Shown here in pieces: positions 30,001 through 36,000 of a DNA stretch of 64,000 nucleotides. This DNA is from a virus. Taxonomy: Duplodnaviria; Caudoviricetes. Position numbers: made by a program. Location: positions 2,053 to 66,052 of IMG/VR virus record IMGVR_UViG_3300049456_000054. One strand, given 5' to 3'. Every line of letters starts with the position of its first letter. Position 1 is the first letter of the stretch.

Positions 30001-33000
30001 GGTGTCCGGCGGGGTGATCACGCCGGCCCCTTCCCGGTCCTGGCCGCTGCCGGCTTCGGCGGGTCAGCCTTCGGGCTGTCCTTCACCGCTGCCGCCTTCT
30101 CAGCCGCCGGACCGTCCTTCGCGGGCCCGCTTTTGTCAGGCGCCTTCTCGTCCTCGCTCGTGTCCAGCGCCGCGAACAGCAGCTCCCCGTGGGCCAGGTC
30201 GTGCTGCACCACCGGGTCGGACTCGGCCAGTATCGCGCCCTTCTGCACCCCCCGCGGGATCCCGTCGAGCTCGATCACGAACGTGTCCAGCGCACGCCGG
30301 TATGACGTCACCGCCTGCACCTGCCCTTCTACGGCCCGGCCGGGTCGACGGCCAGGTGATCGGTCACGGTCTCCAGCGCGCGCGGCTCCGGATCGTCCGG
30401 CGCCCACTCGCCGAACAGCGCCTGCATCGCCTGCACCCAGTCCGGCGCCGCGATCAGCACGTAACCGTCCTTGCGGCCCACGGTCGGCCGGGTGTCGATG
30501 ACCGTGGTCAGCGCCAGCGACGGGGAGAAGCTTCGCTGCAGGTCCGCCATGTCGCGGAAGTCGTACCGCCGCGCCTCGAAGTCCAGCTGCGCGGAGGTCA
30601 GCCGGTCACTGGCCAGCAGCAGGACACCCGGCCCGTCCCATTCCAGGCCGATCATCACCCACTTCGGGCGGGCGCTGTTGAGTATCCGCGCCCGGCTCGC
30701 GGTGATCCGCTGCGGTCCGCTCAAGATGGCCTCCGGAGTTGCGTGAAGCCAAGGCTACCGACCGGACGTCAGGGGCCGGCCGGGTAAGCGGCCAGGTAGC
30801 CGGCCATCACGCCCGTCACGTTGCCCACGCCGGCCACCGGGGCCGTCGTGGTGAAGTTCGCCGCAGACAGGGCGATCAGCGCCGAGTCCGTCACCGAATC
30901 CCGCCGCGCCCCCGCATCCACGAAGTACGACGACACCTGAGCCGAATTCACCGCCGGCGGTGTCCCGGCGCCCAGCGACGTGCCCGTGTCGGTGTAGGCC
31001 ACCACCGCGCCCAGGACCGCGACCAGCAGGTTCTCAGAGTTGGTCACCGTGCCCCGGTATACCCGGACGCCCGTCGTGCCCGCGGGGAGCGCCGCCCAGG
31101 TCAGCGACGCGGTGCCGTTCAGGGCCACCGAGCACGTCGCCTCGTTCGAGGCGGTCGTCTCCCCGTTGCTGTTCAGCCCGGTGATCTTCCAGAAGTACGG
31201 CGCGGCCGCGAACGTGCCGCCGCCCACGTTCGGGGACGCGGCCAGCGTGCCCGGGGCCGCGAGGGAGATGGCCGCCGTGAAGGCGCTGGTCGCGTAGTTG
31301 GCCACCATCGGTCAGTCCTCCTGCTCTGCAACCGTGGTATAGTGGTTGCATGGATACACAATCAATGACCGTCCGGCTCCCGCGCGACCTCTACGAGAAA
31401 CTCCGCCACGAAAAGTTCGAGACCAGGGTGTCCATGAACGAGCTCATCACCATCGGCCTGCGCCTCGTCCTGAAGGACGACATCAGCGCCGAGCAGTACA
31501 GCCAGATGTGCGCCCTGTTCGAGGCGGCCTGGCACCACGCCGTCCCGGAATCCCTCGACGACCTGCCGCCCGTGACCAGCAAGGAAGCCCGCGCACTGGC
31601 GCTGCTAGCCGAGCAGGTGATGTTCCGGTGAGCACACCGGACAGCTTCGAGACGCTCGCCGTCTACAACGCCGAACGCGCACGCGGCATCGTCCACACGC
31701 TCGAATGGGACGCCAGGATGGCCGCACTCCAGGTCAAGTTCGACGAGCGGGTCCGGGACACGCTCCCGGGATACCTGCAGCCCGACGGCACCTACATACT
31801 CCCCGGCTGGATGCCCGAAGCCCTCTGGGACTCCATCCACCGCATCCTCAAGCCAGCACACCGGAAGGACACGCAATGAGCGCGGGCCAGAACCGGCTTG
31901 CCCAGAAGCGCCGCAAGCTGAAGAAGCACGGCTACGACGGGGTGACCGATGAGCAGATATTCCAGCGTGACGACTGGCAGTGCCAGATGGCGGAATGCCT
32001 GTGCCCGGACGGCCGGGGCCTAGACCAGTGCCTGCGGGGAGCGATCGGCGGCCCGTGGGTACCTGCTATTCACCACGTCGTCCGGCTGGCTGACGGCGGC
32101 CTGTCCAACGCCGGCAACAAGCTGGCCGCGCACAACCAGTGCAGCTCAATGGCCAACCGCGAGATTCAGCGGGCGCAGGCGCAGGCGCCGACTGACCCGG
32201 TGCCGGGTGTGGTGATGGTGAGGCTGATCGGCCTGCCGGCTGACATCGACGCGGCGCTGGCAGTGCTGGCGTCTACCGGAAACTGGGAGACGGGGACCCG
32301 CACGGCTGCTCCTAAGGAGCGGATACCAGGGCAGGAGAAAGTCCTCGGGCTGCTGACAGTCCGGGATTGGCCACCATCTGGCTAGCCTGCCTTTCTGGCC
32401 GCCAGCAAGGCGGTCATGGCGTCCGCGTGATACTCCGCGATGTACTCCATCAGGTCGGTGACCCGCTGGCCGGAGGGCTGCGTCACGAACCACAGCTCCA
32501 GGTTGCCGATCGCGTTGTCGTCCCTGACGCCGTTCTTGTGGTGGACGTTCTCGCCGGGGACGAGGCGCCGGCGGAGGTCCTGTTCCTTCACGTACCGGTG
32601 TTCCAGGTAGCGTTCGCCGTTGACCGTGATGACCCGGTAGCCGCGCCCGTCGTCGCTGCCTTCGCCGCTGGCGGCCTTCATCAGGCCGACGGGTCCGCCG
32701 TCCTCGTATCCCAGCTTGAAGACGCGCTGGTAATGCAGGCGGCACCAGCCGAGCGCATATGCCGGCTCGGGGCAGCCGTCCTTGTGCTTGCACGTCCCGC
32801 CGCGCTTCATGCGCCGCGGGATCGGGGCGTCCCAGTCGGGCAGGCCCTGACGTTTCCTGTTGTAGTGCGTCGTGCACAGCTTGGCGGCGTCGATGCGCCG
32901 GCCGCAGTGCCCTAGCGAGCACTCGCCTAGCGTGGCCCGCCATTCGGCGTACTGGTGTTTCTTGCAGATCGTGTTGCCCCTGCGCGGTGGCAGATGGCAA

Positions 33001-36000
33001 TCGTCGTGCGAGCATTCTTCCATGCTGGCTCCCCTAGTTGAGAACCACTGTACGCGGTTCTCAACTAGGGGAAACCATCAGGTCAGGCGCCCTTCATGAC
33101 CCTGAAAGCGTTGACGGTCGAGAGCTGTGCTCCCACGCGCCAGAACATGAACCACGGATTGTTACTCACTCGTCACGGCGAGTGAGGCCAGGTCGTTTCC
33201 GCCTGGCTCTGCGTCTTTTCCATCGGCGCAGACCGGACTATATCTTCAGCTCCAGCCCTGCTCAGCTGTACCGGCTTCGCAGGTCTGTCGGAGTTGCCAC
33301 ACGTGTAGTCTCTACGGACTCCCCGGCACGGGTTGCCTCGGTATTCCCCCGTCGATCCTGGAGGGGTTCACCGATACAGTGCGGTGTTCACTAGCACGTC
33401 ACCGTGCTAGGCGGCCAGTTCAAATTGACCGGCCTGCCCTGCGGGCAGGATGCCGCCGGTCCCCTTGACCAGCGGTTCGTAGATCATCGATACGCCGCGT
33501 TGCTGTTACCACCCGCCTCTGAGGGCGGGCAGGCAGGTCGTTTCCGCCTGCCTCTGCAGCTTTGCCATCGCTGCAGACCGGACTGTAACTTCACCTGCGG
33601 TCCATCGCCCCCGGTGCACTCGGGGCGCGGCCCATAACACAGGTGCCACACGCTCAGTCTCTACGGAACCCTGTAGTGCGAGGTTTCCACGGTATTCCCC
33701 GTCTTGCCTGGTGGGGTTCACCGTTACGGTGCGGTTTGCACTGGCGGATCGCTCCGTCAGGCGGCCAGTGCGAAGTCGTGCTTCGCCTCGACCCGGTCGA
33801 CGATGATGTACTGCCCGAAGTCCCCGAAGATCGCTTCGAGGGTGGTGGTCGCCACGCCGGAGGCCATTGTGGTGGACTCGTAAATGGGAGCGCCCAGCAA
33901 AGTTTCCGGCTGACCCTTCCCCAAATTCGTCCAGAATGAACTGCCGCCGGCGGTGTCGAGCTGCCGGAACCGGTTGATCTGCGAGACGTTCGCGACCCAG
34001 GCGCAGCCGGGAGCATTCCTGAACCTGGCCGGAAGCGCCGCCTGGACGGCATATACGTCGGCGATGGCCACGACCGTAGTGGTCGCGGTGGTGACGACGG
34101 TAGTGGCGCCGTTGACGACGCCCTGCGGCTGGCCGGCACCGGAGCCGGTGGCGAACGCCGCCTCTTCGAGGCGATCCTTGGCGTCGGCCAGGAGGCCCGG
34201 CAGCTGCTGGCCGAAATCGGTGTCTTCGAGAACTTCGTAGCTCGTCGTTGTTACCCGCACGTCAGGGCGTGCGGGGCCAGGTCGTTTCCGCCTGGCTCTG
34301 CGTCTTTTCCATCGGCGCAGACCGGACCATATCTTCACCTCCAGTCCCGCCCGGCTATACCGGCCTGGCAGGCCTGTCGGAGGTGCCTCGCGTGTGGTCT
34401 CTACGGAGTCCCCGGCACGGGTTCCCTCGGTATTCCCCGGTCGATCCTGGCGGGGTTCACCGATACAGCGTGGTTGTTCACTGGCCAGTCACCTGGTCAG
34501 GCGGCAACTTTTTCCTTACCGAACACCCAGGCAGCGGCCTTGCCGGGTGTGACGACGATGTTCGCGACGGTGGGCGTGTTGTCGGTGACGATGGTGCCTT
34601 CAGCGAGCCACGCCGCGTTGACGCCGGCGGAGTTGACGCCGTTCCACGTGTTGGACGTGGTGGTCTTGACGTTGGAGATCCGCCGCCACGGGTTGGCGCT
34701 GGAGGCGTTGGTGAGGATGATGGTCGGGTCGAGGATGAACGGAAGGAGATATCCACCGTTCGCCAGGGTGAGGGACAGGGCGGCGCGCTGGGCGTTGCCC
34801 TGCGGGTCCTGCAGGTACTCCTGGAACGCTTCCTGGTACTCCTCGGCGCCGGTCAGGAGGATGTGCCGGGCGATGTTGTTGTTGGTGAAGTAGCCGCCGT
34901 TCTCGACCTTGCGGGTCGTGACCTCGGCGTACTCGGGCATCAGGTTCCCGCGCTTGGCCTCGTGCTCGATCGCGTCCAGGGCGCGTTCGCGGAGTTCGGA
35001 GCGGCGCATCAGGATCTGGTTCTCGGACCGGATGACGTCCTGGCAGTCGTAGGGGTCCCGGTTGTTGCGGATCACCAGGTCGGGGCCGGAGGGGCCGGAG
35101 GTGCCGTACCGTCCGCCGCCGTAGCCGTTCCCGCTGGCGGCGGGGTCCTGCCCGGCGGGGGCTTCGAGGTTGGCGGGGTCGGCGGCGGCGCGGGTGATGT
35201 TGCGGATCTTCTCCATCCGCTCGATCAGCGGCTTGGATTTGGCGTCGAGGGCTTCCCACCGGTCGAGGAGGGTGTCGCGGAGGTCGCCGTCTTTCTCCTC
35301 GGTGGTTTCCCCGTCGTCCTCCATCCGCTGGAGCTCGTTCTTGATCCTCGCCATCTCGTCGAGGTATTCCTGCAATGCGGCCATGTGCCGCACGTCCTTT
35401 CGGGCCGTTACCAGACCAGCCCGACGCGTTCCCGTGCCTCCTTGGAGCGCAGCGTGAACAGCGCGTGCTGGTGATACCGGGCCGAGTGCTCAGGTCCGTC
35501 ACCGTCGGTGCGGGTGAGCGGCTCACCGGCGGCGGCTCCCTCATCTGGGGGAAGTGCCTCTTCTTCGGGTTCGTCATCGCCGGCGGCCTGGAAGGTGCCG
35601 AGCGGTGACATGCGGACGCCGACTAGTTCCGCGCCCGTGTAGGCGGGGAACGGAGTGGCCCCGTACTCCTTCAGGCCGAGCTCCAGGCGCCGGACCCGCA
35701 TCAGCTGGCCGCCCTTGGGCCGGTACTTCTCGCCGCGGCGCAGCGCCGGGGTGGACCGGACGATCGCGCCGGTGAACGACTGGGCGCTGATCGCGCCTTC
35801 CCGCCACATCTCCAGCAGCTCATTGCCGAGCGGCGTGTCCAGGTAGTACGAGCGGGTCAGGACACCGCGGGACTCGGCGCTGATGTGCTTGCAGACAGCA
35901 GGGGGGAGGGAGAACCGCTCGGCGGGGGTTCCGTGCAGGGTCATGCCGTGGTTGTAGATGCACTTGACCAGGCCGTACCCGGCGCGGGACCGCTGCACGT

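Follow-up and report, generated by a model that had tools for sequence, protein, structure and literature searches.

The uncultured soil phage recorded as IMGVR_UViG_3300049456_000054 carries, directly behind its major capsid gene, a free-standing HNH endonuclease gene whose ribosome-binding site is paired within a long hairpin. The window analysed here comprises bases 2053-66052 of this 66,052-bp IMG/VR virus record (64 kb), and all coordinates given below are window positions. We favour, with moderate confidence, the reading that this is an optional gene of the homing type, and that an RNA hairpin, which moves along with the gene and holds a probable internal promoter, gates the synthesis of its product. 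The sequence features, the fold, the conservation and covariation of the hairpin, the conserved TAnnnT hexamer in its loop and the mobile-like distribution of the gene are all observed.

Hairpin and candidate promoter ahead of the HNH gene

The HNH gene and the elements that precede it were located as follows:

33026-33077 (-): RNA hairpin of 21 pairs, consisting of two perfect arms and a four-pair extension; it pairs the Shine-Dalgarno (SD) sequence
33047-33052 (-): TACAGT, a -10-like hexamer of the TAnnnT type at the 3' end of the hairpin loop; candidate promoter element
33039-33041 (-): predicted transcript start, placed by its spacing of 6-8 nucleotides (nt) after the -10
33029-33035 (-): SD sequence AGGGGAG, 5 nt upstream of the start codon
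32382-33023 (-): free-standing HNH endonuclease gene for a protein of 213 amino acids (P0001); open reading frame (ORF) with a G+C content at third codon positions (GC3) of 0.89 and its ATG at 33023

The hairpin lies between the capsid stop codon (33085-33083) and the HNH start codon on the minus strand. Its arms, 33056-33072 (5') and 33030-33046 (3'), are 100% complementary over 17 nt and enclose a 9-nt loop with the sequence GCGTACAGT. The 3' arm, GGTTCTCAACTAGGGGA, contains six of the seven SD bases (AGGGGA). The original prediction had described a perfect 17-bp stem that pairs most of AGGGGAG and holds TACAGT in its loop, and each of these features was read in the sequence. Folding of an 86-nt RNA confirmed the stability of the structure (-49.8 kcal/mol, z-score -7.6), and none of 200 shuffled sequences folded as well. 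The minimum-energy fold added four pairs to the 17-bp stem and thereby brought the complete SD, together with some of the spacer, into pairing. Only one other perfect hairpin of at least 17 bp was found in the 64-kb window (8012-8059), and no other copy of the arm was detected in the window at up to three mismatches.

The covariation of the stem was evaluated in six related sequences, namely the window and the loci L163, L164, L093, L134 and L106 (HNH homologues, 52-61% identity). Paired bases filled 98.4% of the 126 cells, and 7 of the 21 pairs had changed on both sides. None of 500 shuffles equalled the observed values, and sliding the partners against each other lowered the pairing to 28-55%. 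G.U pairs were frequent among the homologues, with UG present in 6/6 at one pair, in 3/6 at another and in further single cases. Such pairs fit pairing of the sense-strand RNA and not of duplex DNA. The SD was found inside the stem in all six members of the HNH lineage; in the two nuclease-free relatives that were inspected (L082 and L084), the SD of the next gene lies outside the hairpin. The same hairpin sequence family precedes the HNH start codon in the six closest homologues, including L164, the capsid of which is only 38% identical. The occurrence of the same hairpin beside a very different capsid indicates that the hairpin family follows the HNH lineage and not the capsid lineage.

The loop hexamer showed a similarly regular pattern. 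TAnnnT occupies identical alignment columns in 6/6 homologues, immediately ahead of the 3' arm, with the T, A and T fixed and the three middle bases variable. According to the folding calculations, an RNA beginning at 33040 has its SD unpaired, and the read-through RNA has it paired. A more distant homologue in an AT-rich context (L221, 34% identity) has related arms, CTCCCTAGTTAG and CTAACTAGGGAG, together with a canonical TTGACT-N15-TGA-TATAAT, in which the base of the 5' arm carries TTGACT and the loop carries TGA-TATAAT. Two further layouts were read by eye at the hotspot for nuclease genes behind the capsid gene, which is described below. In a different HNH subgroup, TAnnnT-N7-ATG was read, its ATG lying in the loop of a hairpin; this corresponds to a leaderless-type layout. 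The endonuclease VII (Endo VII) type has TAGTAT-N6-ATG.

From the arrangement of these elements, we infer promoter activity, translational repression and a DNA target, which would be linked in the following manner. In the abundant late transcripts reading out of the capsid gene, the hairpin would form and pair the whole SD, and HNH would not be translated from this read-through RNA because its SD is paired. A weak promoter with TACAGT in the loop as its -10 would start a separate RNA at about 33040, inside the 3' arm. This RNA would lack the 5' arm and have its SD free, leading to a low and separately timed dose of the nuclease. The DNA target of the HNH protein would most plausibly be found within the conserved 3'-terminal part of the capsid gene. 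The hairpin probably doubles as the 3' hairpin of that gene.

Control by a hairpin with an internal promoter has been published for I-TevI, I-TevII, I-TevIII, T4 segB and Aeh1 mobE, as set out in passages of Edgell, Gibb and Belfort (2010, PMC2988022). The systems of the T-even phages described in those passages share with the present one a very stable hairpin that sequesters the SD of a homing endonuclease gene lying within a longer transcription unit. They also have a promoter element from which transcripts without the 5' arm arise, leaving the SD free, and the loop hexamer is a candidate for such an element here. The likeness extends to the free-standing state of the gene in the case of mobE and segB. 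The differences concern the setting, which is here an uncultured soil phage of 70% GC with an arrangement known from its sequence, and the candidate -10, which is of the actinobacterial TAnnnT type where the T-even systems use a T4 late promoter. Moreover, the present hairpin stands where a capsid 3' hairpin is generally found. We regard the arrangement as a well-supported candidate for the known I-TevI/mobE type of control, which it would extend to a new phage group.

The HNH protein, the capsid introns and a possible homing partnership

P0001 matched 11 PHROG HNH families (best phrog_20891, E 1.3e-17) and carries the HNH motif ENVHHKNG..DN..NLELW. Comparison of 16 homologues showed that H161, H162, E158, L175, E176 and W178 are invariant and that N174 is kept in at least 90%; the C/H residues of two CCCH repeats are common to all. 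The AlphaFold (AF2) model of P0001 had a predicted local distance difference test (pLDDT) score of 83.5. In a wide structure search, residues 118-183 of the model matched I-HmuI (1u3e) with Z 6.3 and a root mean square deviation of 3.5 A over 65 residues at 25% identity. I-PpoI was the next structural match (Z 3.7), and the N-terminal repeats gave weak A20-type zinc-finger-like matches (Z about 3). We found no match for P0001 in NCBIfam, in a PDB sequence search at E up to 1, or in a Foldseek search of the whole model against the PDB at E up to 0.001. P0001 is predicted to be a nuclease with three N-terminal CCCH zinc-knuckle-like repeats followed by an I-HmuI-like core.

I-HmuI is an HNH nicking endonuclease encoded in the SPO1 DNA polymerase intron (PDB 1u3e). 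In addition to being the best structural match of the P0001 core, it shares with it a motif of the Pfam HNH_3 type, a model that P0001 matches just under the cut-off. The two differ in that I-HmuI is intron-encoded and has another DNA-binding tail, whereas P0001 is free-standing and has the three CCCH repeats at its N-terminus.

P0001 itself looks chimeric. Over its N-terminal two thirds it is most similar to the L163 group, and the C-terminal tail (AEYHADAM; residues about 150-213) is that of the L117 group. The L163 homologue contains a zinc-ribbon-like insertion of 33 amino acids inside the HNH motif. Homologues in cultured actinophages, annotated as HNH endonucleases, were found at unrelated genome positions. 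Gordonia phage Zitch (L245:1476-2115) has a 38%-identical homologue, which aligns from query residue 1 across gp42 (hypothetical) and gp43 (HNH), so the two may be one gene annotated as two. This homologue lies directly after a minor tail gene and has TAACGT-N6-ATG upstream.

To place the gene among related phages, 80 loci of relatives were compared, 75 of which were evaluable for counts of nuclease genes (L090, L110, L119, L129 and L154 were dropped). The genes found directly behind the capsid gene were the following:

HNH type of P0001: 26/75 relatives, on the capsid strand
Endo VII type: 9/75 relatives, on the capsid strand (Pfam 78.5 bits)
GIY-YIG type: 3/75 relatives, on the capsid strand (Pfam 32.8 bits)
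No nuclease gene: 37/75 relatives

The distance from the capsid stop to the next head gene was 60-170 nt without an insert and 500-1550 nt with one; in the window, it amounted to 1775 nt. The position directly after the capsid gene is a nuclease-gene hotspot, at which the HNH gene is optional and has a mobile-like distribution. The enrichment of nuclease genes near capsid genes has already been published, according to passages of PMC10448857.

A terminase-associated HNH protein of cos phages was considered as an identity for P0001 and ruled out. The gene is optional (26/75), follows the capsid gene at a distance from the terminase genes, and belongs to a genome with direct terminal repeats. 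Terminase-associated HNH proteins (HK97 gp74 type) would be expected in all relatives and beside the terminase genes.

The gene upstream of the HNH gene was identified through Pfam Phage_capsid (PF05065), which matches exon 2 with E 7e-28. This result, together with the HNH matches of P0001, bears out the earlier claim that an HNH gene adjoins the capsid gene. The intact capsid of the closest relative (L082, 477 amino acids) aligned to the window in four pieces in a tblastn search, and the gene was divided accordingly:

34518-35384 (-): capsid exon 1, N-terminal coiled-coil and first part of the capsid fold (phrog_10, E 4.1e-14)
34243-34517 (-): predicted group I intron 1 at site B, 275 nt, ORF-less (shared repeats, nhmmer, splice sites)
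33791-34242 (-): capsid exon 2, Phage_capsid core (PF05065), 91% identical to L082
33498-33790 (-): predicted group I intron 2 at site C, 293 nt, ORF-less (direct repeats common with introns 1 and 3; nhmmer E 8e-64)
33428-33497 (-): capsid exon 3 (tblastn with the L082 capsid, splice sites)
33155-33427 (-): predicted group I intron 3 at site D, 273 nt, ORF-less (Rfam Intron_gpI 39.6 bits, E 6.8e-8)
33083-33154 (-): capsid exon 4, WFMFWRVGAQLSTVNAFRVMKGA (tblastn with the L082 capsid; stop TGA 33085-33083)

We interpret the three interruptions as group I introns, the splicing of which is predicted. All three obey the group I rule, with the 5' exon ending in ..GGU and the intron in G, and introns 1 and 3 are 88% identical over 227 nt. 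They hold no nuclease ORF, since 273-293 nt is too short for one. A scan of the whole window with Rfam at the gathering threshold returned no match, because intron 3 (39.6 bits) falls below the gathering score of 50 and was seen in the E-value scan only. For annotation, this is a warning that several small introns below this threshold may interrupt the capsid genes of such phages. Contigs assembled from soil-run DNA skipped exactly intron 3 (33155-33427) in seven cases from three runs, and exactly intron 2 (293 nt) in one contig in each of three runs. This precise skipping shows that intronless alleles circulate.

An nhmmer profile built from the introns gave no other match in the window and none outside the capsid genes among the relatives' loci. 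Fifteen of the 80 relatives had one to three introns at four sites (A-D), of which the window occupies B, C and D, and intact intronless capsid ORFs were found in the other 65. The intron lineages mix among sites A-D and do not group by site or genome. The three sites of the window have in common only the GGT that precedes the insertion point, plus an internal guide-like GCCGCC. This combination points to guide-directed spread or to recombination between intron copies, and not to one site-specific enzyme. At site A of L121 (4825-5790), an interruption of 975 nt was noted that matches the intron profile over its last 90 nt only; it may be an intron carrying an ORF.

Capsid-gene introns and free-standing HNH genes have been reported together in the Cluster J mycobacteriophages (Pope et al. 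2013, PMC3706429). As described in passages of that paper, Cluster J resembles the present phage in two respects: a group I-like intron (exon ending in U, intron in G) interrupts an actinophage major capsid gene, and many free-standing HNH genes have a patchy distribution. In contrast to LittleE, which has one intron with its own endonuclease gene, the present capsid gene has three ORF-less introns of one family, and the nuclease gene is outside the introns, behind the capsid gene. A regulatory hairpin is not described in those passages.

A further role proposed for the HNH protein is collaborative homing. The enzyme would cut or nick intronless capsid alleles near an intron site, with the intron providing immunity and the HNH protein providing mobility for the intron. 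This reading can coexist with regulation by the hairpin; we judge it possible, yet on balance doubtful. A precedent is F-CphI of cyanophage S-PM2, which cuts the intronless psbA allele and is blocked by the intron (Zeng et al. 2009, as summarised in passages of PMC6083498). There, too, a free-standing nuclease gene adjoins a gene with an ORF-less group I intron, and relatives at the present hotspot carry genes with the Endo VII motif, which is the family of F-CphI. However, cleavage was demonstrated for F-CphI (PMC6083498), whereas the partnership proposed here is judged from sequence. The present locus further differs in having three introns at unrelated sites, a co-occurrence of introns and nuclease that is not significant, and an enzyme that resembles I-HmuI and not Endo VII.

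The arrangement of the locus offers some support for this partnership. The HNH start is 130 nt downstream of intron site D, and intronless C and D alleles exist as DNA in the soil runs. The closest HNH homologue, that of L163 (61% identity, same hairpin), also stands behind a capsid gene with introns C and D. Co-occurrence was counted over the 75 evaluable relatives, with p values that are uncorrected for relatedness:

Any intron and any nuclease gene: 8/14 with intron, 30/61 intronless, p 0.77
Site D and any nuclease gene: 6/8 with intron D, 32/67 others, p 0.26
Site D and this HNH type: 5/8 with intron D, 21/67 others, p 0.12

The last comparison showed a trend at site D, and no significant association was obtained in any of them. 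Twenty intronless relatives carry this HNH type, which indicates that the introns are not needed for immunity. Conversely, the capsid gene is followed by no nuclease gene in six of the intron-bearing loci, so the introns persist without one. The original prediction had inferred that the HNH protein cuts intronless capsid alleles and that the introns confer immunity, and had proposed the co-occurrence of HNH and introns in relatives as a check; these counts do not support that inference.

The sequence TGGTTCATGTTCTGG, which represents the capsid codons for WFMFW, forms the 3' flank of site D. Copies of it with up to three mismatches were detected just after the capsid stop in 11/39 nuclease-bearing and 3/38 nuclease-free loci (p 0.036), as compared with 0/1103 random stretches. 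The HNH loci with such a copy (L107, L108, L111, L123, L132, L133, L146 and L156) have it within the first 30 nt after the capsid stop, and TAnnnT abuts the copy in 8/8 of them. The copies are often preceded by the last bases of the intron. A flank copy beside a -10 resembles the I-TevI operator, which mimics the enzyme's own homing site according to passages of PMC2988022. On the other hand, the window itself has no such copy behind its capsid stop. The consensus site-D sequence is kept in 13/32 nuclease-bearing loci without intron D; among intronless loci, it is somewhat rarer in these than in nuclease-free ones (about 23/36), by a hand count that is confounded by relatedness.

Because the three intron sites share only the GGT, one enzyme could serve at most one of them, and the mixing of intron lineages among sites A-D fits guide-sequence-directed reverse splicing or recombination between copies. 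A partnership with intron D only is possible. A tentative version of it, to which we give little weight, is that the HNH genes of the hotspot recognise TGGTTCATGTTCTGG and that eight relatives keep a near copy as a self-repression operator; in the window and in L163, intron D would split the site, and intron and HNH gene would move together.

The same capsid codons recur in another form in three nuclease-free loci (L092, L095 and L144). There, CCAGAACATGAACCA, an exact or near-exact reverse complement of TGGTTCATGTTCTGG, lies inside the post-capsid hairpin about 39 nt after the capsid stop, where pairing with the coding sequence, some 110 nt further upstream, would be possible.

Alternative roles of the hairpin

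Several results weigh against the gating of the HNH gene by its hairpin. A simple scan for sigma-70 consensus promoters found none in 30500-36000, and no convincing -35 was seen in the window near the hairpin; pairing may be the reason why TGGTTT is kept at the foot of the stem. Alternatively, the conserved loop hexamer could be a motif acting at the RNA level. The conservation of the hairpin is good but not final evidence, because it comes from six related sequences only. On the protein side, P0001 scored 23.5 bits (E 4.4e-5) against Pfam HNH_3 (PF13392), which is 1.3 bits below the cut-off of 24.8. Finally, the position of the hairpin is generic. A stem of at least 10 bp within 100 nt of the capsid stop was present in 32/38 nuclease-free and 29/39 nuclease-bearing relatives, as compared with 25/377 random stretches, so the SD might be paired as a side effect of a terminator or stabiliser of the capsid gene. 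The original prediction is upheld in part. Its I-TevI-like control is supported by comparison of homologues: the covariation of the hairpin, the TAnnnT of all six homologues and the free SD of an RNA from 33040 agree with it, and the sigma-70 scan does not.

The generic position and the empty promoter scan are the arguments for regarding the hairpin solely as a terminator or 3' stabiliser of the capsid gene. In that case, its overlap with the HNH SD would be incidental, there would be no internal promoter, and HNH would be expressed by read-through or silenced. Such a role would not explain why the hairpin family tracks the HNH lineage, as seen from L164 and from the related arms in L221, or why TAnnnT is conserved in the loop. 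The placement of the SD, inside the stem throughout the HNH lineage and outside it in the two nuclease-free relatives, is a further argument against it, and the sequence has no U-tract after the stem. We consider this explanation improbable.

That the palindrome acts as DNA, as an operator for a dimeric protein (the HNH or the ribbon-helix-helix (RHH) protein encoded 1.4 kb away) or as a recombination or cleavage site, is very improbable: the perfect 17-bp inverted repeat is symmetric in DNA as well, and I-TevI represses its own promoter through an operator (passages of PMC2988022), but the G.U pairs that keep the stem together in the homologues would be A.C mismatches in the complementary strand, which disrupts the symmetry of the DNA, and the arm has no second copy in the window.

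Setting in the phage genome and implications

The reading that we prefer, a nuclease gene gated by its hairpin, applies to an uncultured, complete 66-kb high-GC soil phage. The virus record has direct terminal repeats and a completeness rating of 100%, its G+C content is 70.5%, and the minus strand holds most genes. Its structural module is read in the order portal, unassigned gene, prohead protease, major capsid gene and HNH gene. Relatedness to cultured phages is low: capsid exon 1 is only 32-36% identical to its nearest counterparts (Gordonia, Mycobacterium and Rhodococcus phages), and a megablast search of 31000-39500 against cultured phages returned no match. The neighbouring genes are listed below:

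37624-39060: portal gene, first of the structural module in reading order
35408-36556: prohead protease gene, structural module
31873-32385 (+): weakly HNH-like ORF, 170 amino acids (phrog_8660, E 1.3e-3; weak classical motif ..HHV..GG..N..H)
31350-32385 (+): second insertion, convergent with the HNH gene (GC3 frame plot)
31350-31631 (+): RHH/Arc-like gene, 93 amino acids (RHH_1 17.3 bits, phrog_582)
30769-31308 (-): next conserved head-module gene, g1

Homologues of the RHH gene occur at the same spot in L094, L112 and L126. The 31350-32385 insert is missing from one soil contig, which joins 31300 to 32370. NCBIfam gave no match for the RHH protein or the plus-strand ORF.

Other nuclease genes were observed in the window. 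A second free-standing one (29170-29634, minus strand; Endonuclease_7, 58 bits) lies between two conserved head-tail genes, and it is preceded by an AT-rich leader with TAGAAT-N6-ATG at its end, a promoter layout of the leaderless type. A third nuclease-type gene, near the left genome end (window 14-148, plus strand; genome 2066-2200), encodes a classical HNH domain (PF01844, 44.5 bits) and could be the packaging-associated one. In the terminase large subunit region (40135-41886, minus strand), a 311-amino-acid ORF matches TerL_ATPase weakly and the neighbouring ORFs overlap; the terminase large subunit gene may be split or interrupted.

The covariation of the stem and the conserved loop hexamer indicate that the T4-style control of selfish nuclease genes, with a promoter inside a hairpin that hides the ribosome-binding site, also occurs in uncultured high-GC soil phages. 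In such phages, this control appears to be merged with the capsid 3' hairpin. Much is crowded into the 3' end of the capsid gene, where three nuclease families and four intron sites occur together with copies that resemble homing sites and lie beside promoters. If the doubtful partnership of the HNH gene with intron D were true, collaborative homing would be known from a second, independent system, here in a gene for a virion structural protein of a high-GC phage. One capsid 3' end would then be the place where ORF-less introns, promoter-in-hairpin control and three nuclease families evolve together.

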